NCBI GenBank assembly: GCA_964016885.1
Contig: OZ024740.1
Location: forward strand, 352,284,001 to 352,348,000
Direction of reading: 5' to 3'
From: Eledone cirrhosa
Taxonomy: Eukaryota
Length of the DNA stretch: 64,000 nucleotides
The notes under the pieces were generated by a model. That model ran no database searches, was not told the origin of the DNA, and saw only the letters and a list, made by a program, of their open reading frames with translations. The translations under genes and the position numbers were made by a program. Within the stretch, counting starts at the first letter, position 1; every line of letters starts with the position of its first letter. Positions 11,045-64,000 of this stretch are shown here, piece after piece.

Positions 11045-11875
11045 CTATGTTTTCTCTCCTGTATGGTTACGCTTGTGTTGCATTAAGCTATCACTTCTAG
11101 AAAAAGTTTCACTACAGATATCACAGTGGTATGGTCGCTCGCCTGTGTGAATACGCTTGTGTCTAGCAAAATGACCACTTTGAGAGAATGTTTTACCACA
11201 TACATCACAATGGTATGGTCTTACTCCTGTGTGAATACGTATGTGACCAGATAAATGACCCTTTGTAGAAAATCTTTCGTCACAGATATCACATTGGAAT
11301 GGTTTCTCTCCTGTGTGAATAAGTTTGTGATAAGTTAAATTACGCTTTCTAGAAAATGCTTCATCACAGACATCACATTTATATGGTCTTTCTCCTGTGT
11401 GAAGACGTTTATGGGCAGACAAATCAGCACTTCCAGAAAATGTTTTACCACAGACATCACAGTGGTATCGTTTCTCTCCTGTGTGGATACGCTTATGGGT
11501 AGATAGATTACCATTCTCAGAAAATGCTTTACCACAGACATCACAATGGTATGGTTTATCCCCTGTATGAACACGTTTATGTCGAGCAAAACAACCCTTT
11601 TGAGTGAAATTTTTACCACAGACCTCACAATGGTATGGCCTTTCTCCTGTGTGAATACGTATGTGTCGTGATAAATGACCAGCTTGAGAGAATGTTTTAT
11701 CACATATATTACAGGGATACTGTTTTTTTCTTGTGTGAATACGTTTATGAGAAGTTAACGAATTGTTTGTAGTGAATAACTTTCCACATATATCACAAGT
11801 ATGTGGTTTCATGTCTATATTTTCCTGTGTCTGATTAGATGAACCAATATATTTAAGTTCTGATTTCTCATCCAT
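11045..11875 (-). CDS. C2H2 zinc-finger protein, 9 tandem fingers, 276 aa, no recognisable effector domain
   Basis: Uninterrupted ORF with 9 CxxC-x12-HxxxH fingers and TGE(K/R)P linkers. Paralogous to 42485-43393. Confidence 0.93.
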   Translation of the reverse strand: MDEKSELKYIGSSNQTQENIDMKPHTCDICGKLFTTNNSLTSHKRIHTRKKQYPCNICDKTFSQAGHLSRHIRIHTGERPYHCEVCGKNFTQKGCFARHKRVHTGDKPYHCDVCGKAFSENGNLSTHKRIHTGEKRYHCDVCGKTFSGSADLSAHKRLHTGERPYKCDVCDEAFSRKRNLTYHKLIHTGEKPFQCDICDERFSTKGHLSGHIRIHTGVRPYHCDVCGKTFSQSGHFARHKRIHTGERPYHCDICSETFSRSDSLMQHKRNHTGEKT

Positions 11876-12112
11876 AACTTTATTTCTCTTAATTTATATT
11901 TCTCTGTATGATGGTCTTTGATACTTAAAGAACTTCAAGTGGATTTATTTGACTAGTATATTACAATTAACCAGCAATTAAAGATTGTTAAAATAGCTCC
12001 AATAAACAAGATATATCAAGATATAAAAATCCTTAAACATACAAAACTTCATGGTAAATCTTCCAAGTTTAATAAGTACAGAAAGACATTTTCCAGTCAA
12101 CAATTGTGTATC

Positions 12113-26544: not shown

Positions 26545-26673
26545 AAGTGGTTACACAACAGTTAGTTCACCATATCGAGAACAATTGTTTCACCTTAGCG
26601 GATCCTCAGCTTGGACCCGCTAAAGTGAAACAATTGTTCTCGATATGGTGAACTAACTGTTGTGTAACCACTT
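26545..26673. repeat. ~60-bp-arm fold-back between (TA)n tracts, containing a minimal hammerhead-like motif (Penelope-type pLTR remnant)
   Basis: Arms aagtggttacacaacag...gtttcac / gtgaaac...ctgttgtgtaaccactt. Minus strand reads ag-CTGAGGA-tccgctaaggt-GAAA-caattg-TT-ct. Confidence 0.7.
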
Positions 26674-26776: not shown

Positions 26777-26985
26777 TAACATTAAAGTTTAAGCAAAGAA
26801 TCGCTGCTTTCGCCCTTAACGGGATCTTCTGAAACTCACAAGATCACGTTAAGGGTGAAAGCACCGATTCTTTGCTTAAACTTTAATCTGTTATTTTAAT
26901 AAATATTTGCTCTACGGTTCTTATATATTTGATATATATTTATCCTTATCGAGGATTTTAGTCTTCAAATTTATTATTATTACTA
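26771..26985. mobile_element. Penelope/retrozyme-like repeat family H as an inverted partial duplication; hammerhead-like motif at 26786-26836 (-)
   Basis: Fold-back at 26771-26900. Same sequence occurs at 29450-29565 and 56390-57065. Embedded in (TA)n. Confidence 0.7.
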
Positions 26986-27578
26986 TATATATATATATAA
27001 AGCGAATATGTTCTATTGTGTAATTCTTCTTTCTTTCAAGATAGAACATTTTCTAAACTAGCCTCATACCTTCCACTATGATGAGGTTGTATAATAATTT
27101 CTTTTAAGATAAGAAAACTGATTCCATTTTTTTTTTCTTCTTTTCTTATAGCCAAAAATTAAATAAAAGAGAGTGAGATGACATGAAAAATTATCAAATT
27201 CCTTTGAGCAGCCAGAGAAATTACTCTGACCAAGTTGATGTATTTTCATTAATGTATCATTGTGCTTAATTAAATATATTATTTGGCCATCACCATGTGA
27301 TAATAATGAATTTCTTTTATTTTACATCATAAAAAATTATTATAGAAATTTCAGTTGAATTTTATCGGTGGATTGGCAGTATCGGTAGAGGGTCGGACGC
27401 CATGCTTTCCAGCATAGTTACGTCCCTTTGCGGTCTGAGTTCAAATCCCGCCGAGGTTAACTTTGCCTTTCATCCTTACGGGGTCGATAAAATAAAGTAC
27501 CAGTAATGTACTAGGTAATTGCTGGCATGGTGCCAAAAGTAGAAACAATTATCTATAAAATTCAATACTACTCCTTTT

Positions 27579-28062: not shown

Positions 28063-29164
28063 TCTATATATATAAAACTGAGGTTGTCTGTCTGTCTATC
28101 GATTTTTGGCACACATCTCCTCTTAGAATCTCTCACGGAATTGCACCGAAATTGTTATACTTGTACATTGAGCCCTAGCGAAGACATCGGAAAAAAAATA
28201 TTTCAAATTGACCCGCCCTATCTGACGAAATCGAATATAATGTATCGATTTTTGAGCGTAAGTGATGAGTTATTTCCCTTTGTTCTGTTTACATTCAGCG
28301 TAGCGTCTTACGTTCTCTTTACATTTTCTGCGTGCAAAAATTAAAAAAATGATTTCCCTTTGTTCTGTTTACATTCAGCGTAGCGTCTTACGTTCTGTTT
28401 ACATTTTCTGCGTGCAAAAATTAAAAAAATTACGCTGGCAAAAATTAAAAAAATTACGCTGGCTTTCTCAGCGTTTAAAATGACATTAACACAATACGCG
28501 AACAGTTGTCGAGCCAGCAAAATTTTGACCTGCAAAATTCATCAGTTCGAACACTAAACTTCCGTTTTGCTTCATTTCCATTTAAAAGCCTTTTAAAACA
28601 ATATTTTTACTTGAAAACAAGTCTATTTAAAGACTACGTAAAACAAGCAAATATTTCGTAAAAAAAAGCAAAAATTATATAAGTTTATTTAAAATATATG
28701 TATCTGTAAATTTCGTTAGGCGTGCAGAGAGGTGATATACGCGTGCAGACAGATAGTCGTGCAGAGAGGTGATATACGCGTGCAGACAGATAGTCGTGCA
28801 GAGAGGTGATATACGCGTGCAGACAGATAGTCGTGCAGAGAGGTGATATAGGCGTGCAGACAGACATAACTGATAATTTGGTTACGCTAATGTTTTTCTC
28901 TGCGTTGCAGTGTTTACATTTTCGATCTTTGTTAACCAGTGCAGTTTTTATCCCCAGCATCCTCTTTTGTTATAACATTCGGGTTATCGTTATGTTTTCT
29001 TAACTTCATAAGGCATATTGTTGGTTGAGGGAATATTAATAAAAAACACCACATGCAAGTCTGCACAGTAGACACTACAGTTTTTAAGCCAAAAAAGAAA
29101 CTTAACATTGTAACTTTAAGACAGCTACTGAGCGACCCCGAGCAACGCCGGGCTTTACTGCTAG
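28063..29164 (+). mobile_element. Non-autonomous Helitron
   Basis: A|TCTATATATATAAAACTG 5' end, subterminal hairpin CCCGAGCAACGCCGGG, CTAG|T 3' end, internal tandem duplications. Confidence 0.85.
28721..28868. repeat. 37-bp minisatellite, 4 copies, inside the Helitron
   Basis: Unit cgtgcagagaggtgatatacgcgtgcagacagatagt. Confidence 0.9.
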
Positions 29165-29176
29165 TATATATATATA

Positions 29177-30120
29177 TCTATACTATAAAGCTGACGGCCG
29201 TATGCAGGTAACAATCTTTCTGCCAAACGGCTGGACCAAACAGCACCAAATTTGCACCATAGATGTAACTTTTTCCAAGTAAAAAAGTTAGGGTATTTTT
29301 GTCTACTGAATTTTGTTAAAAGATTAAAGACATTATTTAAATATTCACTTCGTTAAAATTTCAAATGTCAACACTTCCGGTTATACGTCCTCACTTTTTC
29401 TTATGATGCCGCACAACATGCTCTGTATGTATGGCTGTCTGCATTACATAACGTTTTTCAAAATATTTACTTCTGCGTTCACAGACGGATTTTTTTTAGT
29501 TTCAGAAGATCCCGTTAAGGGTGAAAGCGATTCTTTGCTTAAACTTTAATCTGTTATTTTAATATATATATTCGTGTACAGATATTTTTGCATACACAAA
29601 AACAAAAACCTATTTATTTCACGAAAGCACAGATGGCTTATCGTCATTGTTACTGTTCGAGGTTAGAGGGCAAAAGTCTATCCAAGATCTGAGAACCATC
29701 AATGGCCATCAATGTTCCACTTACCGTTTGGCTTGCCAGATGCGTTGTATGTTACACGATGACAGCCATTGGCACTTCACCCACGAAAGTCTAGCTGGGG
29801 ACATCCTCCACCGTATACGCAGACACAATCCGAATGTAACATACGATGTTGTTTTCAATGAGGCGCTCATTTGTCTTGAAAACAGTGTCCTGGAGATTGG
29901 TGGTAGGCCTCTAAGTCACTACAGCTTACCTGCTCTTGACAGGAGTGTCCAGAGGTCAACGTCTACAGAGCTTCTTCGCGAGATGAGCTACGAGATCAGT
30001 GCTTCTCCCATGGTCAATTGTATGTAGGATGCTCTAGGGTGAGCTCGCCAAACAATCTCTTCATCTTTGCTCCGGAGGGCCAAACAAAAAATATTTTATA
30101 CTCTGAGGCTCTAACAATGT
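29177..30120 (+). mobile_element. Internally deleted Helitron with a RepHel remnant
   Basis: 5' TCTATACTATAAAGCTG. LLFEVRGQKSIQDLRTINGHQCSTYRLAC..LHDDSHW is joined to the PIF1 C-terminal motif SHGQLYVGCSRV..QTKNILYSEAL. Confidence 0.8.
29498..29545 (+). ncRNA. Putative type I hammerhead ribozyme, variant core (family H)
   Basis: AGTTT-CAGAAGA-t CCC gttaa GGG t-GAA-AGC gattcttt GCT-T-AAACT. Stems I, II and III all pair; predicted CUU cleavage triplet; core has A at U4. Confidence 0.6.
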
Positions 30121-30669
30121 AATTTAAATATTTTCTGTTACTTGGAATTTCCATTATGGTTGTACAAATTATTGTTTGTTAAAAAAATTGTTCTCTGTTC
30201 AGCCTTTATTGTTGTAACTATCAATTTTCTTTAACGTACTGGCTGCTGAACTGGGGAATCCTAAAAACTATTCAAAACCAACATCAGAGCAGATAATAAT
30301 ATATACGTCTGGATCGTTCGCTAGATAGAGATGCTATAGATAAAAGATATATTTTATCTGTAACATCTCTATCTGATGAACGATCCTGACATATATTATT
30401 ATCGTCTGTGATCCAGAAATATTTGGTAATGGAGTAGTTATATTTTGTGTTGTTCACTTTCTAATTAAATATATATATATATATGATTTATTTTTAGAAG
30501 CTTCAATGTCGCTGTCAACTTTTTTCCATCAAGAGGCTTTTATACCCACCTTGTTAGATTATTTTTCAAAGAAAAAAAAATATGTAGAAGCTTCTAAATG
30601 GTCAATAAATACTATATTAACATAAATAAATGTACATATATATATATAAATACTATAAGTATATGTATC

Positions 30670-42484: not shown

Positions 42485-43393
42485 CTATGGTTTCTCTCCT
42501 GTGTGGATACGTTTGTGTTGAGCTAAATTATCACTTCTAGAGAATGTTTCACTACAGATATCACAGTGGTATGGTCTCTCTCCTGTGTGGATATGCTTGT
42601 GTCTAGCAAAATGACCACTTTGAGAGAATGTTTTACCACATATATCACATTGGTATGGTCTTTCTCCAGTATGAATACGTACATGGACAGACAAATGACC
42701 CTTTGTAGAAAATGTTTCATCACATATATCACATTGGTATGGTTTCTCTCCTGTGTGGATATGTTTGTGATAAGTTAAATTACGTTTTCTAGTGAATGTT
42801 TCACCACAGACATCACAGTGGTATGGCCTTTCTCCTGTGTGAATACGTTTGTGGACAGACAAATCAGCACTTCCAGAAAATGTTTTACCACAGACATCAC
42901 AGTGGTATGGTTTCTCTCCAGTATGAATACGTTTGTGTTGAGTTAAATTATCACTTCTAGAGAATGCTTTATCACAGATTTCACAGTGGTATGGTTTTTC
43001 TCCTGTGTGAATATGTTTGTGGGAAGACAAATGACCATTTCTAGAAAATGATTCACCACAGTTATCACAGTGGTATGGTTTTTCTCCAGTATGAATTCGT
43101 TTGTGTCGAGAGAAACTGCCCTTTAGAGTGAAATTTTTACCACAAATATCACAGCGGTATGGTTTTTCTCCAGAGTGAATACGTTTATGGGAAACTAAAG
43201 TGCTAATATCTGAGAATGTTTTACTGCAGATATCACAGTGGTGTAGTTTTTCTCCTATACAGTTATGACAAGTTAACAAATTCTTTGTAGAGAATAATTT
43301 ACGACATACATCACATGTGTGTGGTTTCATTTCTGTATTTTCCTGTATCTGATTAGCTGAATCAATATTTTTAAGTTTTGCTTTCTCATCCAT
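42485..43393 (-). CDS. C2H2 zinc-finger protein, 9 canonical fingers plus 1 degenerate N-terminal finger, 302 aa
   Basis: Uninterrupted ORF with TGEKP/TGERP linkers. Same MDEK..MKPHTCD leader as gene 1. Confidence 0.93.
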   Translation of the reverse strand: MDEKAKLKNIDSANQIQENTEMKPHTCDVCRKLFSTKNLLTCHNCIGEKLHHCDICSKTFSDISTLVSHKRIHSGEKPYRCDICGKNFTLKGSFSRHKRIHTGEKPYHCDNCGESFSRNGHLSSHKHIHTGEKPYHCEICDKAFSRSDNLTQHKRIHTGEKPYHCDVCGKTFSGSADLSVHKRIHTGERPYHCDVCGETFTRKRNLTYHKHIHTGEKPYQCDICDETFSTKGHLSVHVRIHTGERPYQCDICGKTFSQSGHFARHKHIHTGERPYHCDICSETFSRSDNLAQHKRIHTGEKP

Positions 43394-43780
43394 AACTTTC
43401 TCTTATAATCTATATTTCCATGTATGATGATTTTTGTTAAAGTCTACTGATATCTTGGCTGTTAAGAAATAACTTCAAATGAATGTATTAGGATAGAATC
43501 ATGTAAATAATGACATGCAACTAAAAGATAATTAAGCTAATGTTAATTAACAAGATGTATCTAGATATCAAATCCTCATATGTCAGACACTTTATGACAA
43601 ACCTTCTGAGTTTAATAAGTACAGAAAACATTTGATTAGAAGTTTTTGCAATTTTTAATCCCAAGAAAATATTTCACATCCATTCAGCCAAAAGTTGTAG
43701 AAACCAGTTAATATCAGCTTGGTGAAGTTATTTCAATCTTTAAGAATTGATAAATGTGTCAATAATCTTCAGTGAAATAT

Positions 43781-45105: not shown

Positions 45106-45460
45106 CGGACACTACAACGCTATTAGCTGTCAGTCCAGTGGAAAACAGGCGAAAGTGACGTCACTCGTCAACATCGTTTATTTCCGTATTACTACCACGC
45201 GTAAGTGGAGTTTTCACGCGTTTTTTTTTTGAGAGAGAGGGAAGACTTAAAAGGGCCAAATTAGAAAACAAGTCATGGTTATAAAGCAGATCGATGTAAG
45301 TGGAGTTATTTAAATGAAAATATAGGTGGCCCTTAAAAGGGCCAAATTAGAAAACAAGTTATGGTTATCAATGTAGAAAACAAGTCATTCATAAATTTAA
45401 GTTTTATAATCAAATTTTTTTCATCAACAAATATGACAGCTAATAGCGTTGTAGTGCCCG
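45106..45460. mobile_element. MITE with 27-bp TIRs
   Basis: CGGACACTACAACGCTATTAGCTGTCA / TGACAGCTAATAGCGTTGTAGTGCCCG; internal direct repeat cttaaaagggccaaattagaaaacaagt (2 copies). Confidence 0.75.
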
Positions 45461-52400: not shown

Positions 52401-52659
52401 TATATATATATATATTTAATATAGAAATGGCTTCAACGGGACTAGAACTGTTTCATTCGGAGGAAATCATCAGAAAAGCCGACTGTCAATGTAATATGGT
52501 GGTATTTATACATTTTCTGGTGGTAGGGGAGGGTAGTAAATTGATGCTAAGTAGACAAACACATACACACTGACAGCACTCCTAATTTTCAAGATTCATT
52601 TATTCCAAACAAAGGATTTTCATTGAGTGGCAATATTAAAATGCTCTGCTAAAAGATAT

Positions 52660-56262: not shown

Positions 56263-56389
56263 GTAATAATTGTTTCTACTTTAGGCACAAGGCCAGCAAT
56301 TACCCAGTGCATTACTGGTACTTTATTTTATCGACCCCGTAAGGATGAAAGGCAAAGTCAACCTCGGCGGGATTTGAACTCAGATCGTA

Positions 56390-57065
56390 AACTTTAATCT
56401 GTTATTTTAATCTGTTATTTTAATAAATATTTGCTCTACGGTTCTTATATATTTGATATATATTTATCCTTATCGAGCCCTCTTTGGATGTTAGTCTTCA
56501 TATATATAGTAATAATAATACATATGAAGACTAACATCCAAAGGGGGCTCGATAAGGATAAATATATATCAAATATATAAGAACCGTAGAGCAAATATTT
56601 ATTAAAATAACAGATTAAAGTTTAAGCAAAGAATCGGCTGCTTTCACCCTTAATGGGATCTTCTGAAACTAAAAAAAAAAATCAATCTGTGAACGCAGAA
56701 GTAAATATTCGAAAAACGTTGCAACCAAAGGAAGACAGGAAGACGATACTTTGGTTCATGGAGACGTAGTTTTAGGTATTTCTACCTGCTTGGTACGGGT
56801 ATCTTCTTTGTAGAAATATTCAGATGTTTCTGCATGATGAATATAAGTCAATAGAGTACTCAGTCAAGGGAGACAAATAGTAATAATAATAAATTTGAAG
56901 ACTAACATCCAAAGAGGGCTTGATAAGGATAGATATATATCAAATATATAAGAACCGTAGAGCAAATATTTATTAAAATAACAGATTAAAGAATCGGCTG
57001 CTTTCACCCTTAATGGGATATTCTGAAACTAAAAAAAATCAATCTGAACGCAGAAGTAAATATTT
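56390..57065 (-). mobile_element. Family H Penelope/retrozyme-like element: partial tandem (371-bp period) plus inverted terminal copy; hammerhead-like motif at 56619-56670 (-)
   Basis: gaagactaacatccaaag at 56526 and 56897. 56410-56502 is the reverse complement of about 56523-56620. Confidence 0.7.
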
Positions 57066-57169
57066 CTAAGCTGATCTTTCCCAAATGCACCTCTCAAGGG
57101 CAATGACACACGACCATGACCTCTGGCGTCACACAGTAATACAGAAGACCCGACTTTCCACAGGAATAT

Positions 57170-60100
57170 ATAGGCAATATTTGTTTTCCTTTGTTTTTTT
57201 ATGTCCTATCATCTAATCCGACCTCCAAAATGATTGCAATTGACTATTTTTTTAGCATATTAACAACAAATAGAATTTCCACTGCAATTAAAAATGACTA
57301 GCTTTGTAAATGCTATTTCCACCCACATCCTCCCTCTTTTTTCTACAAAGCTAGTCATTTTCATCAGGTTTCCATGTCATAACCATTGATAATATGTGCA
57401 TAAAATAGTAATTTGCAAGCACCATTTATGTCAAATTGGGTGGTAAGCACACACAAAAAAAAAAAAAAAAATGCCAAATGAAAATTTGTCACACCAAAAT
57501 CAATAGCTTGCTGTGATGTAGTATGGTGTGGTTTGGTGAAGTTTCTACAAAGATAGTCATTTTTGACAGATTTCCATGTCATAATTATTGATATGTGAAA
57601 AAAAAAAAAAAAATTTGGAAGCACCTTTAATGTCAGATTCGGTGGTAAGCACACAGAAAAAAAGAAAAGCCAACGGGAAAAACATTTTTCACACCAAGAT
57701 CAATAGCTTGGTGCGATGAAGTATGGTGTAACTTGGTTTGGTTTGGTTTGGTGAAGTTATGAAATGGAAACCAATTGTAATTAATAAATTGTAGATTAAT
57801 GTGCTGTGGTGTGCTTTATTATATGTGAGGATTTAAATTTCCACTTTGATTTATGCTAGAAAAAATATTTTTCCTCTATTTTTGCACGTGCTATCAACTT
57901 CCAAGAAGCTCGCAGTGGACTATGCTTTTAGCATATTAACAAAAAATATGACTTCCGCTGCAATAAAAAATGACTAGCTTTGTAAATGTTATTTCCACCC
58001 ACATCCTCCCTCTTTTTTCTACAAAGCTAGTCATTTTCATCAGGTTTCCATGTCCTAACCATTGATAATATGTGCATAAAATAGTAATTTGCGAGCACCT
58101 TTTATGTCAAATTGGGTGGTAAGTACAATAAAAAAAAAAAAATGCCAGATGGAAATTTGTAACACCAAAATCAATATCTTGGCGTGATGTAGTATGGTGT
58201 GATTTGGTGAAGTTTCTACAAAGATATCCATTTTCGACAGGTTTCCATGTCATAATTATTGATAAGTGGGAAAAAAATAATCGATTGGGAGCAACTTTAA
58301 TGTCCGATTGGGTGGTAAGCACACAAAAAAAAAAAAAAGGAAACGGGAAGAACATTTTTCACACCAAGATCAATAGCTTGGTGTGATGCAGTATGGTGTA
58401 ACTTGGTATGGTGTAGTTTGGTTTGGTTTACTTATGAAATGGAAACCAATTGTAAACGATAGATTCCCATGTCATATTCATTGATAATGTGTGGGAAAAT
58501 AGTCATTTGCAAGCACCTTTGATGTTAGTTTGAGGTGGTAACCACAAAAAAAAAAGAGCAGGTAGCAAATTTGTCATATTGATGTCCATACCATGGTGTG
58601 ATGTAAATGGTATGAGTAAGTGTTCTGTAATAAATTTACCATATAGTGAAGTATGGTTATGGTGTGGATTGGGGTAGATTAATGTGCTGTGGTGTGCTTT
58701 ATTATATGTGAGGATTTAAATTTCCACTTTGATTTATGTTAGAAAAAATATTTTTCCTCTATTTTTGCACGTGCTATCAACTTCCAAGAAGCTCGCAGTG
58801 GACTATGCTTTTAGCATATTAACAAAAAATATGACTTCCGCTGCAATAAAAAATGACTAGCTTTGTAAATGTTATTTCCACCCACATCCTCCCTCTTTTT
58901 TCTACAAAGCTAGTCATTTTCATCAGGTTTCCATGTCATAACCATTGATAATATGTGCATAAAATAGTAATTTGCGAGCACCTTTTATGTCAAATTGGGT
59001 GGTAAGTACAATAAAAAAAAAAAAATGCCAGATGGAAATTTGTAACACCAAAATCAATATCTTGGCGTGATGTAGTATGGTGTGATTTGGTGAAGTTTCT
59101 ACAAAGATATCCATTTTCGACAGGTTTCCATGTCATAATTATTGATAAGTGGGAAAAAAATAATCGATTGGGAGCAACTTTAATGTCCGATTGGGTGGTA
59201 AGCACACAAAAAAAAAAAAAAGGAAACGGGAAGAACATTTTTCACACCAAGATCAATAGCTTGGTGTGATGCAGTATGGTGTAACTTGGTATGGTGTAGT
59301 TTGGTTTGGTTTACTTATGAAATGGAAACCAATTGTAAACGATAGATTCCCATGTCATATTCATTGATAATGTGTGGGAAAATAGTCATTTGCAAGCACC
59401 TTTGATGTTAGTTTGAGGTGGTAACCACAAAAAAAAAAGAGCAGGTAGCAAATTTGTCATATTGATGTCCATACCATGGTGTGATGTAAATGGTATGAGT
59501 AAGTGTTCTGTAATAAATTTACCATATAGTGAAGTATGGTTATGGTGTGGATTGGGGTAGATTAATGTGCTGTGGTGTGCTTTGTTATAAGTGAGGATTT
59601 AAATTTCCACTTTGATTTATGTTAGAAAAAATATTTTTCCTTCATTTTTGCACGTGCTATCAACTTCCTAGAAGCTCGCAGTGGACTATGCTTTTAGCAT
59701 ATTAACAAAAAATATGACTTCCGCTGCAATAAAAAATGACTAGCTTTGTAAATGGTATTTCCACCCACATCCTCCCTCTTTTTTCTACAAAGCTAGTCAT
59801 TTTCATCAGGTTTCCATGTCATAACCATTGATAATATGTGCATAAAATAGTAATTTGCGAGCACCTTTTATGTCAAATTGGGTGGTAAGTACAGAAAAAA
59901 AAAAAAAAAAAAAAATGCCAGATGGAAATTTGTCACACCAAAATTAATATCTTGGCGTGATGTAGTATGGTGTGATTTGGTGAAGTTTCTACAAAGATAT
60001 CCATTTTCGACAGGTTTCCATGTCATAATTATTGATAAGTGTGAAAAAAATAGTCGATTGGGAGCAACTTTAATGTCAGATTGGGTGGTAAGCGCACAAG

Positions 60101-63100
60101 AAAAAAAGAAAACGCAACGGGAAAAAAATTTTTCACACCAAGATCAATAGCTTGGTGTGATGCAGTATGGTGTAACTTGGTATGGTGTAGTTTGGTTTGG
60201 TTTACTTATGAAATGGAAACCAATTGTAAACGATAGATTCCCATGTCATATTCATTGATAATGTGTGGGAAAATAGTCATTTGCAAGCACCTTTGATGTT
60301 AGTTTGAGGTGGTAACCACAAAAAAAAAAGAGCAGGTAGCAAATTTGTCATATTGATGTCCATACCATGGTGTGATGTAAATGGTATGAGTAAGTGTTCT
60401 GTAATAAATTTACCATATAGTGAAGTATGGTTATGGTGTGGATTGGGGTAGATTAATGTGCTGTGGTGTGCTTTATTATATGTGAGGATTTAAATTTCCA
60501 CTTTGATTTATGCTAGAAAAAATATTTTTCCTCTATTTTTGCACGTGCTATCAACTTCCAAGAAGCTCGCAGTGGACTATGCTTTTAGCATATTAACAAA
60601 AAATATGACTTCCGCTGCAATAAAAAATGACTAGCTTTGTAAATGTTATTTCCACCCACATCCTCCCTCTTTTTTCTACAAAGCTAGTCATTTTCATCAG
60701 GTTTCCATGTCATAACCATTGATAATATGTGCATAAAATAGTAATTTGCGAGCACCTTTTATGTCAAATTGGGTGGTAAGTACAATAAAAAAAAAAAAAT
60801 GCCAGATGGAAATTTGTAACACCAAAATCAATATCTTGGCGTGATGTAGTATGGTGTGATTTGGTGAAGTTTCTACAAAGATATCCATTTTCGACAGGTT
60901 TCCATGTCATAATTATTGATAAGTGGGAAAAAAATAATCGATTGGGAGCAACTTTAATGTCCGATTGGGTGGTAAGCACACAAAAAAAAAAAAAAGGAAA
61001 CGGGAAGAACATTTTTCACACCAAGATCAATAGCTTGGTGTGATGCAGTATGGTGTAACTTGGTATGGTGTAGTTTGGTTTGGTTTACTTATGAAATGGA
61101 AACCAATTGTAAACGATAGATTCCCATGTCATATTCATTGATAATGTGTGGGAAAATAGTCATTTGCAAGCACCTTTGATGTTAGTTTGAGGTGGTAACC
61201 ACAAAAAAAAAAGAGCAGGTAGCAAATTTGTCATATTGATGTCCATACCATGGTGTGATGTAAATGGTATGAGTAAGTGTTCTGTAATAAATTTACCATA
61301 TAGTGAAGTATGGTTATGGTGTGGATTGGGGTAGATTAATGTGCTGTGGTGTGCTTTGTTATAAGTGAGGATTTAAATTTCCACTTTGATTTATGTTAGA
61401 AAAAATATTTTTCCTTCATTTTTGCACGTGCTATCAACTTCCTAGAAGCTCGCAGTGGACTATGCTTTTAGCATATTAACAAAAAATATGACTTCCGCTG
61501 CAATAAAAAATGACTAGCTTTGTAAATGGTATTTCCACCCACATCCTCCCTCTTTTTTCTACAAAGCTAGTCATTTTCATCAGGTTTCCATGTCATAACC
61601 ATTGATAATATGTGCATAAAATAGTAATTTGCGAGCACCTTTTATGTCAAATTGGGTGGTAAGTACAGAAAAAAAAAAAAAAAAAAAATGCCAGATGGAA
61701 ATTTGTCACACCAAAATTAATATCTTGGCGTGATGTAGTATGGTGTGATTTGGTGAAGTTTCTACAAAGATATCCATTTTCGACAGGTTTCCATGTCATA
61801 ATTATTGATAAGTGTGAAAAAAATAGTCGATTGGGAGCAACTTTAATGTCAGATTGGGTGGTAAGCACACAAGAAAAAAAGAAAACGCAACGGGAAAAAA
61901 ATTTTTCACACCAAGATCAATAGCTTGGTGAGATGAAGTATGGTGTAACTTGGTTTGGTTTGGTTTGGTGAAGTTATGAAATGGAAACCAATTGTAAACG
62001 ATAGATTCCCATGTCATATTCATTGATAATGAGTGGGAAAATAGTCATTTGCAAGCACTTTTGATGTTAGTTTGAGGTGGTAACCACAAAAAAAAAAAGA
62101 GCAGGTAGCAAATTTGTCACATTGATGTCCATACCATAGTGTGATGTAAATGGTATGAGTAAGTGTTCTGTAATAAATTTACCATATAGTGAAGTATGGT
62201 TATGGTGTGGATTGGCGTAGATTAATGTGCTGTGGTATCCTTTGTTATAAGTGAGGATTTAAATTTCCACTTTGATTTATGTTAGAAAAAATATTTTTCC
62301 TCTAATTTTGCACGTGCTATCAACTTCCTAGAAGCTCGCAGTGGACTATGCTTTTAGCATATTAACAAAAAATATGACTCCGGCTGCAATAAAAAATGAC
62401 TAGCTTTGTAAATGGTATTTCCACCCACATCCTCCCTCTTTTTTCTACAAAGCTAGTCATTTTCATCAGGTTTCCATGTCATAACCATTGATAATATGTG
62501 CATAAAATAGTAATTTGTGAGCACCTTTTATGTCAAATTGTGTGGTAAGTACAAAAAAAAAAAAAAAATAAAAAAAAATATGCCAGATGGAAATTTATCC
62601 CACCAAAATCAATATCTTGGTGTGATGTAGTATGGTGTGGTTTGGTGAAGTTTCTACAAAGATAGTCATTTTCGACAGGTTTCCATGTCATAGTTATTGA
62701 TAAGTGGGAAAAAAATAGTCAATTGGGAGCAACTTTAATGTCAGATTGGGTGGTAAGCACACAAAAAAAAAAAAGGAAACGGGAAGAAAATTTTTCACAC
62801 CAAGATCAATAGCTTGGTGTGATGTAGTATGGTGTAACTTGGTTTGGTTTGGTTTGGTTTGGTTTGATTTGATTTGGTTTGGTGAAATTATGAAATGGAA
62901 ACCAACTGTAAACGATAGATTCCCATGTCATATTCATTGATAATGTGTGGGAAAATAGTCATTTGCAAGCACCTTTGATGTTAGTTTGAGGTGGTAACCA
63001 CAAAAAAAAAAGAGCAGGTAGCAAATTTGTCACATTGATGTCCATACCATGGTGTGATGTAAATGGTATGAGTAAGTGTTCTGTAATAAATTTACCATAT

Positions 63101-63830
63101 ACTGAAGTATGGTTATGGTGTGGATTGGGGTAGATTAATGTGCTGTGGTGTGCTTTGTTATAAGTGAGGATTTAAATTTCCACTTTGATTTATGTTAGAA
63201 AAAAGTTTTTCCTTCATTTTTGCATGTGCTATCAACTTCCAAGAAGCTCGCAGTGGTCTATGCTTTTGGCATATTAACAAAAAATATGACTTCCACTGCA
63301 ATAAAAAATGACTAGCTTTGTAAATGGTATTTCCACCCACTTCCTCCCTCTTTTTTCTACAAAGCTAGTTATTTTCATCAGGTTTCCATGTCATAATTAT
63401 TGATAATATGTGCATAAAATAGTCAATTGCGAGCACCTTTAATGTCAGATTGGGTGGTAAGAACACACACACACAAAAAAAAAAGAAACAGGAAGAAAAT
63501 TTTTCACACTGTGATCAAAAGCATGGTGTGATGTAGAATGATGTAGTTTGTTATGGTGTGGTTTGGATTGTTGGAGTTATGACATGAGAACCTATTGCAA
63601 ATGATAGGTTTCCATGTTGATAACACATTGATAATGTAACACATTGATAATGTTACACATTGATAATGTGTAAAAAAATAGTCATTTGTGAGCACCTTTG
63701 ATATCAGATTGGGTGGTAAGCACACACACACAGTAAAAAAAAAAACAGGAAGAAAAATGTTCTCACTGAGATTAAGAGCATGGTATGATGTAGTATGGTG
63801 TAGTTTAATGTGGTATGGTTTTCCAAGCTC
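57170..63830. repeat. Higher-order satellite, about 7.5 units of 883-913 bp built from ~195-bp monomers
   Basis: Marker gtagattaatgtgctgtgg at 57791, 58674, 59557, 60448, 61331, 62217, 63130. Identical spurious ORFs recur at 883- and 1774-bp spacing. Confidence 0.95.
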
Positions 63831-64000
63831 CAACATGCTCACAGCCGACTATGCTTTTACCATCATCATCATCATTTTACGTCCACTTTTCCCTGCTTGC
63901 AAGGGTGGGACGGGACCTGATTCTGGCTTGATTTCTACAGCTGGATCATTCTACAGCTGGATGCCCTTCCTAACACCAACCTCATTTACAGTGAGTGCTG

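Follow-up and report, generated by a model that had tools for sequence, protein, structure and literature searches.

A hammerhead-like motif with adenosine at core position 4 at the 3′ end of a Hydra-clade Penelope-like element in Eledone cirrhosa

The 64,000-nucleotide stretch of Eledone cirrhosa DNA analysed here (the window) contains hammerhead-like motifs whose core reads CAGAAGA, with A at position 4, and the question they raise is whether such a motif is still a ribozyme and what kind of element has multiplied it. Three complete copies had been described in the initial annotation, at 26786-26836 (minus strand), 29498-29545 (plus) and 56619-56670 (minus), and all three were recovered at these positions with the helices given for them. 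The relaxed-core search that it had proposed, performed with a type I descriptor that accepts any base at position 4, returned exactly these three from the 64-kb window, while a looser type I descriptor gave 3 matches in the window versus 2 in 20 Markov-simulated windows of 64 kb. Rfam yielded 40 matches at E values up to 5 in the window, none of which was a hammerhead; a histone 3′ UTR stem-loop match at 45304-45348 (minus) scored 34.5 bits, just above the Rfam gathering score.

In copy 2 (29498-29545), the core C3 A4 G5 A6 A7 G8 A9, with A4 at 29504, is joined to helix I AGTTT/AAACT and followed by stem II CCC/GGG with a T·T closure and a GTTAA loop, then GAAA, stem III, U16.1 and U17 (29540). 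The predicted cut lies 3′ of 29540, which as a position agrees with the original claim. Stem III has 5 pairs and a 7-nt non-palindromic loop in the family form and a 3-nt deletion in copy 2, and helix I of the family form continues past a 7-nt bulge with 9 further pairs (ACAGATTGA/TTAATCTGT), an extension that copy 1 lacks and that has suffered damage in copy 2. Agreement with a type I hammerhead extends to the arrangement of three helices about a core, with helix I as the open one, and to G12 A13 A14, the A15.1-U16.1 pair and H17; the core C3 U4 G5 A6 N7 G8 A9 of the class is departed from at position 4, where A stands. Since U4 is lacking, the motif is not classed here as a proven ribozyme, despite sharing the place and shape of the hammerheads of Penelope-like elements (PLEs). 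The bare motifs of 48-52 nt fold no better than shuffled sequences (z of -0.63, +0.44 and +0.34). For the family form, the predicted pairing probability is 72-100% in outer helix I, 84-87% in stem II and about 33% in stem III, inner helix I being paired in merely 5-8% of the predicted ensemble, and the hammerhead fold lies 2.1 kcal/mol above the predicted minimum.

None of the window copies sits in a full element. Copy 2 is part of a PLE 3′-end fragment of about 120 nt (29450-29569, plus), of the older subfamily type and 88% identical to the element 3′ end, which is inserted at a TA stretch within a non-autonomous Helitron (29177-30291, plus). This Helitron has its TC 5′ end at 29177 and a RepHel/PIF1 remnant from about 29620; the frame of a sister Helitron copy shows 42-55% identity to Helitron_like_N/PIF1 proteins in 5 of 6 matches, and the PLE-Helitron junction is found in at least 165 exact genomic copies. 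Another Helitron copy terminates, with its 3′ hairpin and CTAG, directly before the 5′ end of this one (29130-29165, plus). A Helitron origin of the motif had been considered, as a first genome search, with a query that included the Helitron flank, gave the 5′ end marker at 22 of 30 loci. It was rejected on an unbiased sample with the marker in 0 of the 30 first-listed copies, on the element map and on the identity of the copy 2 fragment with the PLE 3′ end. As to the element, the association with PLEs made in the initial annotation stands, and the host element and the ride of copy 2 on a Helitron had escaped it.

Copy 1 (26786-26836, minus) lies at the junction of an inverted PLE insertion, 5′-truncated and arranged tail to tail, which is flanked by (TA)n runs and whose inverted arm (26836-26992, plus) comprises a truncated motif (from A7 on), the tail and the start of the element 5′ UTR. 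Copy 3 (56619-56670, minus) forms the 3′ end of an internally deleted, non-autonomous PLE unit (56595-57069, minus; about 360 nt from motif to motif) made of a broken upstream motif, 5′ UTR, the first ORF codons, a deletion junction and the 3′ end with copy 3. The broken motif (56966-57030, minus) has a CAGAATA core and has lost stem III and the 3′ strand of stem I. Adjacent to the unit, a tandem 5′ UTR start and inverted arm (56388-56619, with a hairpin at 56406-56619) form a typical PLE inverted end. The deletion junction is common to a second genomic locus (L033), and the two-motif unit, at 56595-57200 (minus) of the window and 900-1750 of L033, has the same unrelated upstream flank at these two distant loci. 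From its sequence, the unit resembles a non-autonomous derivative of retrozyme type, or else a passenger carried by another repeat; as a PLE-derived non-autonomous two-motif unit it resembles the animal non-LTR retrozymes, as far as these are described in the available part of bioRxiv 10.64898/2026.07.22.740005, a comparison made with genomic DNA from two related loci. Lacking the full element, the window copies differ in ways that say little about function.

Other features of the window were noted. A decayed hammerhead of another family with a canonical core (CTGAGGA), with a T·T closure and 3-bp stem II, lies at 26576-26613 (minus), 170 nt from copy 1; it has relatives at four loci (L375, L384, L390, L400), and an endonuclease remnant at L400 is 38% identical to the A4 element. 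Another decayed motif, with a canonical CTGATGA core and a long stem III, precedes a (TA)n run at 52430-52478 (minus) and has a better-kept relative at L068. The window also contains two C2H2 zinc-finger array exons, at 11045-11893 and 42485-43402 (both minus), about 89% alike in register, and a tandem array of at least 7 copies of an approximately 885-nt unit at 57100-64000.

The element itself was reached through the genome. A search of 3.0 Gb with an exact 24-mer containing CAGAAGA found 20,881 copies, and the family thus has at least 20,881 near-identical members. Most of the first 30 listed copies run upstream into one common sequence, and downstream they end about 70 nt on in (TA)n or continue into a common tail. 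The retroelement whose 3′ UTR this common upstream sequence represents encodes RT and, C-terminally, GIY-YIG domains; it is a young, autonomous Hydra-clade PLE of about 3.2 kb with a 709-aa ORF. At ten loci, picked for long open frames (709-726 aa), the element always ends in the A4 motif (10/10), about 930 nt past the stop, and (TA)n follows about 70 nt further on. In all ten, the motif is placed as in Hydra-clade PLEs, on the sense strand, near the 3′ end and in the pLTR; it is present in both direct pLTRs at 5 of them, and an inverted pLTR is found at 3. The proposed kinship with the type I hammerheads of PLEs is borne out by this position at the 3′ end (pLTR) of a Hydra-clade element.

The Hydra clade has been defined by a set of protein motifs together with (TA)n targets (Craig et al. 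2021, PMC8557442, available part). The ORF protein carries LRWRA, SDKTG, YRDDG, CNCRNRADC, AYIG, CDLC and CKH, thus the RWR, DKT, CxCX5C, CxxC and CxH of the clade along with its RT core and C-terminal GIY-YIG, and the element inserts at (TA)n with tandem or inverted pLTRs. Its likeness to the published Hydra alignment was assessed visually. Identity reaches 38-56% to the 120 matches listed of 476 in the database. Pfam and PDB sequence searches of the protein gave no significant match; a relative of it does match GIY-YIG in Pfam. In a quick tree of 29 rows, confined to Hydra-like relatives with no outgroup clade, the family groups with its closest relatives, P0002 and P0006. A second young Hydra-clade family (L096, L246-L275), with frames up to 719 aa and 5′ UTR words in common with the A4 family, carries a hammerhead of canonical core (CTGACGA) whose stem II is very long. 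Many further hammerhead families occur in the genome, including U3-A8 variants (L042, L053, L121) and tandem arrays of 300-500-nt units with one hammerhead each (L091, L250).

A at position 4 is the state of the whole family. It is present in 20,881 copies versus T in 90, a number that matches the neutral control, A7 changed to T in 100 (p=0.51); the canonical CTGAAGA consensus, which would have contradicted the proposal that the family amplified with A4, was thus not found. The 30 T4 copies examined of the 90 are scattered over subfamily backgrounds, and a canonical-core ancestor subfamily was rejected as their source. Three look-alikes with T4 and C15.2 are products of inversion junctions at the near-palindrome TTCAGAA/TTCTGAA and lack helix I. 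Inversion junctions of the element often fall at this near-palindrome around A4 (L396-L398, L035, L039, L071), where inversion can give back a CTGA core that lacks helix I. In the older subfamily A4 is found in 28 of 30 copies, with G4 in the other 2, and in the younger in 15 of 15 aligned copies. A deep sequencing run (10,726 contigs) showed no variant of at least 3% at A4, most of the variants above this threshold within the motif being at or beside CpG sites; eight of 24 runs were covered in looking for spread to other species, and the seven besides this one gave 1-13 contigs each, of low depth and often near-identical, which may be carry-over or diet and were left out of the evidence.

Relatives of the element almost all have U4. 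In the available part of Craig et al. (File S2, PMC8557442) it is found in 26 of 26 published Hydra rows, and the 58 motifs that were obtained from metagenome relatives, with 62 of 79 loci contributing, comprise 57 with U4, 1 with C4 and none with A4; there was no motif on the opposite strand in these loci. A model search of the 17 metagenome loci without a motif gained 4, all with U4. Sister motifs in the genome with the same 3-bp stem II, and other hammerhead families there, keep CTGA. Judged from these sequences, A4 is a derived state, and the change may predate the family, its tree partners P0002 and P0006 having been compared by protein alone. A covariance model built from 21 relatives aligned the A4 motif end to end at 11.5-11.8 bits (E about 1), versus 19.3 bits (E 0.007) for a natural T4 copy and 19.7 bits for a canonical sister; copy 1 gave no full-length match. 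The fold covaries across the 21 relatives (63 double-change cells, reached in 0 of 500 shuffles), a result that leans towards structure since the rows were pre-selected for pairing.

Some other traits of the motif are ordinary. The T...T closure is present in 14 of the 26 Hydra rows (PMC8557442, in part) and 30 of the 58 metagenome motifs, a U10.1-U11.1 mismatch has been described in nature (Perreault et al. 2011, PMC3088659, in part), and the 3-bp stem II is also an ordinary feature of the clade. Private to the family, relative to the 58 metagenome motifs, are G15.2 and a long stem III, with an insert of 15 nt in the family form versus 2-8 nt in 58 of 58. The papers listed in literature searches included no report of a U4A variant, and an earlier record may exist in Repbase, Dfam, Lunse et al. 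2017 or the older mutagenesis papers.

Whether the remaining structure is under constraint is less easily read. The initial annotation had pointed to loops that vary and stems that are kept. The differences are there, and they reflect mutations private to single copies or marks of sub-lineages. Decay affects every position of the copies, CpG sites being the commonest variants, which makes the argument weak, and three members of a huge near-identical family are not independent evidence of selection. The kept stems of the window copies reflect recent copying rather than selection on each copy. A comparison was made between two subfamilies that were retrieved without the motif, by a protein query and by a UTR query ending upstream of it, and that differ by 14.8% in aligned UTR. 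Fixed differences number 0 in 69 paired and core columns versus 37 in 268 UTR columns (p=0.0002), the latter count leaving out alignment bins -350 to -200, which hold a large indel and were dropped before counting. Against the nearest 200 nt of UTR the contrast is 0/69 versus 19/180 (p=0.002), and in a first pass with 7 older copies only it was 0/69 versus 31/364. The structure therefore looks constrained. The other catalytic letters (C3, G5, A6, G8, A9, G12-A14 and A15.1-U16.1) are intact in both subfamilies; about 15 intact letters at 14% divergence are not significant alone (about p=0.1 by hand arithmetic).

At the level of sequence, this pattern indicates constraint on the structure or an exchange of ends. 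No compensatory change is part of it, and it does not tell a catalytic from a structural cause. Conservation of the 3′ end could indeed stem from exchange of ends between subfamilies, and perhaps the ribozyme died in an ancestor and is a neutral relic, kept alike by 3′-end homogenisation (template switching, pLTR renewal) and not by selection on its RNA structure. There is no covariation inside the family, and the two subfamilies display identity with no compensatory pair change. Low divergence extends to the unpaired 10-nt tail behind the helix (0/10) and to positions -100 to -60 (1/38), and Helitron-borne copies have spread with a damaged outer helix. Yet fixed differences do occur in the 7-nt bulge inside the motif (2) and in the 44 nt directly upstream (6), so that the block of identity follows pairing and not simply distance from the end. 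Neutral homogenisation is, in our view, an improbable explanation.

A different reason for keeping A4 would be splicing. A branch-like TTGAY can be read in the motif together with a U-rich tract and TTTCAG, and A4 would then be retained because it gives the pLTR a 3′ splice site (pyrimidine tract, TTTCAG), the spliced mRNA of the downstream ORF losing the 5′ half of the ribozyme. In the available part of Cervera and de la Pena (2014, PMC4209133), the intron end of D. virilis Penelope maps to the 5′ end of helix I. On the other hand, upstream element sequence is joined precisely to the base after CAG in 0 of 188 distinct genomic contexts, and the branch-to-AG distance is short, about 16 nt. Read from the sequence, such a role is very improbable.

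As for catalysis, published mutagenesis predicts low cleavage activity for U4A. In the available part of a pairwise mutational scan, all single mutants of the CUGA turn were low, and a C3-G8 swap was the sole rescue by a second mutation. Natural core variants with low but real activity do exist (Perreault et al. 2011, PMC3088659, in part), among them a U4C change that much reduces activity in vitro, yet is viable in vivo in a viroid. A genomic proxy was sought in the 5′ junctions of the element, as a motif that cuts the transcript upstream might make them pile up at the cut site. There were 51 matches at the cut site versus 87 at a control site, of which 25 of 30 and 17 of 30, respectively, were true junctions; after scaling, about 92 versus 88 gives no excess at the cut site, in a comparison that had no positive control and may lack power. 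With the two sites equal after scaling, chance accounts for the one arm in the window whose start coincides with the cut site.

Perhaps the change is tolerated nonetheless and the motif is a working ribozyme, probably protein-assisted or dimeric, in which the longer stem III would make up for the core change together with the G15.2-C16.2 pair and the extended helix I, and cleavage would process tandem transcripts. Every other core letter is intact and the same in both subfamilies, the whole 69-nt paired and core region appears constrained, a monomer fold would be possible with a stem III that far exceeds those of relatives in length, and the predicted energy of the hammerhead fold is just 2.1 kcal/mol above the minimum. 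Moreover, protein-assisted cleavage is known for another PLE: the hammerhead of the anole PAc Poseidon is silent alone and cleaves with the ORF protein (PMC11167929, in part), and low-activity core variants occur naturally. The unrescued CUGA-turn mutants, the predicted 5-8% pairing of inner helix I, the lack of a junction excess and the rarity of U17 cleavage triplets among the metagenome relatives (7/58) speak against it. A tolerated change is a tentative possibility that we would rather doubt; the narrower claim, that a natural U4A hammerhead still cleaves at a useful rate, rescued by the long stem III, the extended helix I or the element's protein, we consider rather unlikely.

The explanation that we favour, at about an even chance of being right, takes the motif for the 3′-terminal hammerhead of a Hydra-clade PLE whose whole family carries A4; its catalysis is likely crippled (weak or dead), and the fold probably persists as an end signal to the element's RT-endonuclease protein. 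The place in the element, the architecture homologous to Hydra hammerheads, the fixation of A4, the amplification with intact ORFs and the fewer fixed changes than in the flanking UTR are directly supported. The element would be transcribed from the upstream pLTR through the tandem, its ORF protein would bind near the folded motif and nick a (TA)n target, and reverse transcription would start just downstream of the motif on uncleaved RNA, so that each insertion would receive the complete motif. Judged from other hammerheads, cleavage would fall strongly once the U-turn uridine is lost. In the anole PLE, dead-core hammerhead mutants insert normally in vitro (PMC11167929, in part), and Naiads thrive without hammerheads (PMC8557442, in part). 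Against crippled catalysis it may be said that a long-dead ribozyme need not keep its remaining catalytic letters, and that PLE hammerheads silent alone can cleave with the element protein, and that the U4C viroid variant is viable in vivo.

The A4 motif is not a new kind of system, it is a variant within known PLE hammerheads. With the Hydra-clade PLEs described in the available part of PMC8557442 (Hydra-1_aJap, Penelope-16_HM and Hydra-1_Obim), the element has in common a single ORF with RT and C-terminal GIY-YIG, the RW(K/R), DKT, CxCX5C, CxxC and CxH motifs, (TA)n targets, tandem and inverted pLTRs, and a sense-strand type I hammerhead near the 3′ end, including the ctgaNgaT...Tgaa closure and a stem II of 3-4 bp. 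It differs from these hammerheads by A4, G15.2-C16.2 instead of C-G, the long stem III and the 930-nt 3′ UTR; its motif and linker strings are absent from the available supplement of that study, and it is not one of the families listed there. The minimal PLE hammerheads in the accessible part of PMC4209133 are similar in their pLTR location, their thousands of truncated or inverted single copies and their low expected activity, although the core variant there is a compensated U3-A8 pair and not a change of U4. In PMC3088659, as far as available, a position 4 change and a U-U closure are both natural, yet U4C is found in rare isolates, whereas U4A is fixed in a 20,000-copy family. PAc Poseidon of Anolis is likewise a PLE with a hammerhead, dispensable there for insertion in vitro, but it belongs to another clade, with a canonical core and a hammerhead that overlaps the ORF start (PMC11167929, in part).

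Craig et al. suggest that PLE hammerheads may simply parasitise PLEs (PMC8557442, in part). The A4 family is a natural experiment on whether these hammerheads have a role, in which a very successful autonomous PLE has fixed a change at a near-invariant core base and kept the rest of the fold. If A4 does not cleave, the fold would be kept for a non-catalytic job; if it does, a tolerated core variant would widen the hammerhead consensus. Should cleavage at a useful rate prove true, the supposedly invariant U-turn uridine would be replaceable in a ribozyme with more than 20,000 copies, and standard CUGANGA searches would miss whole families.
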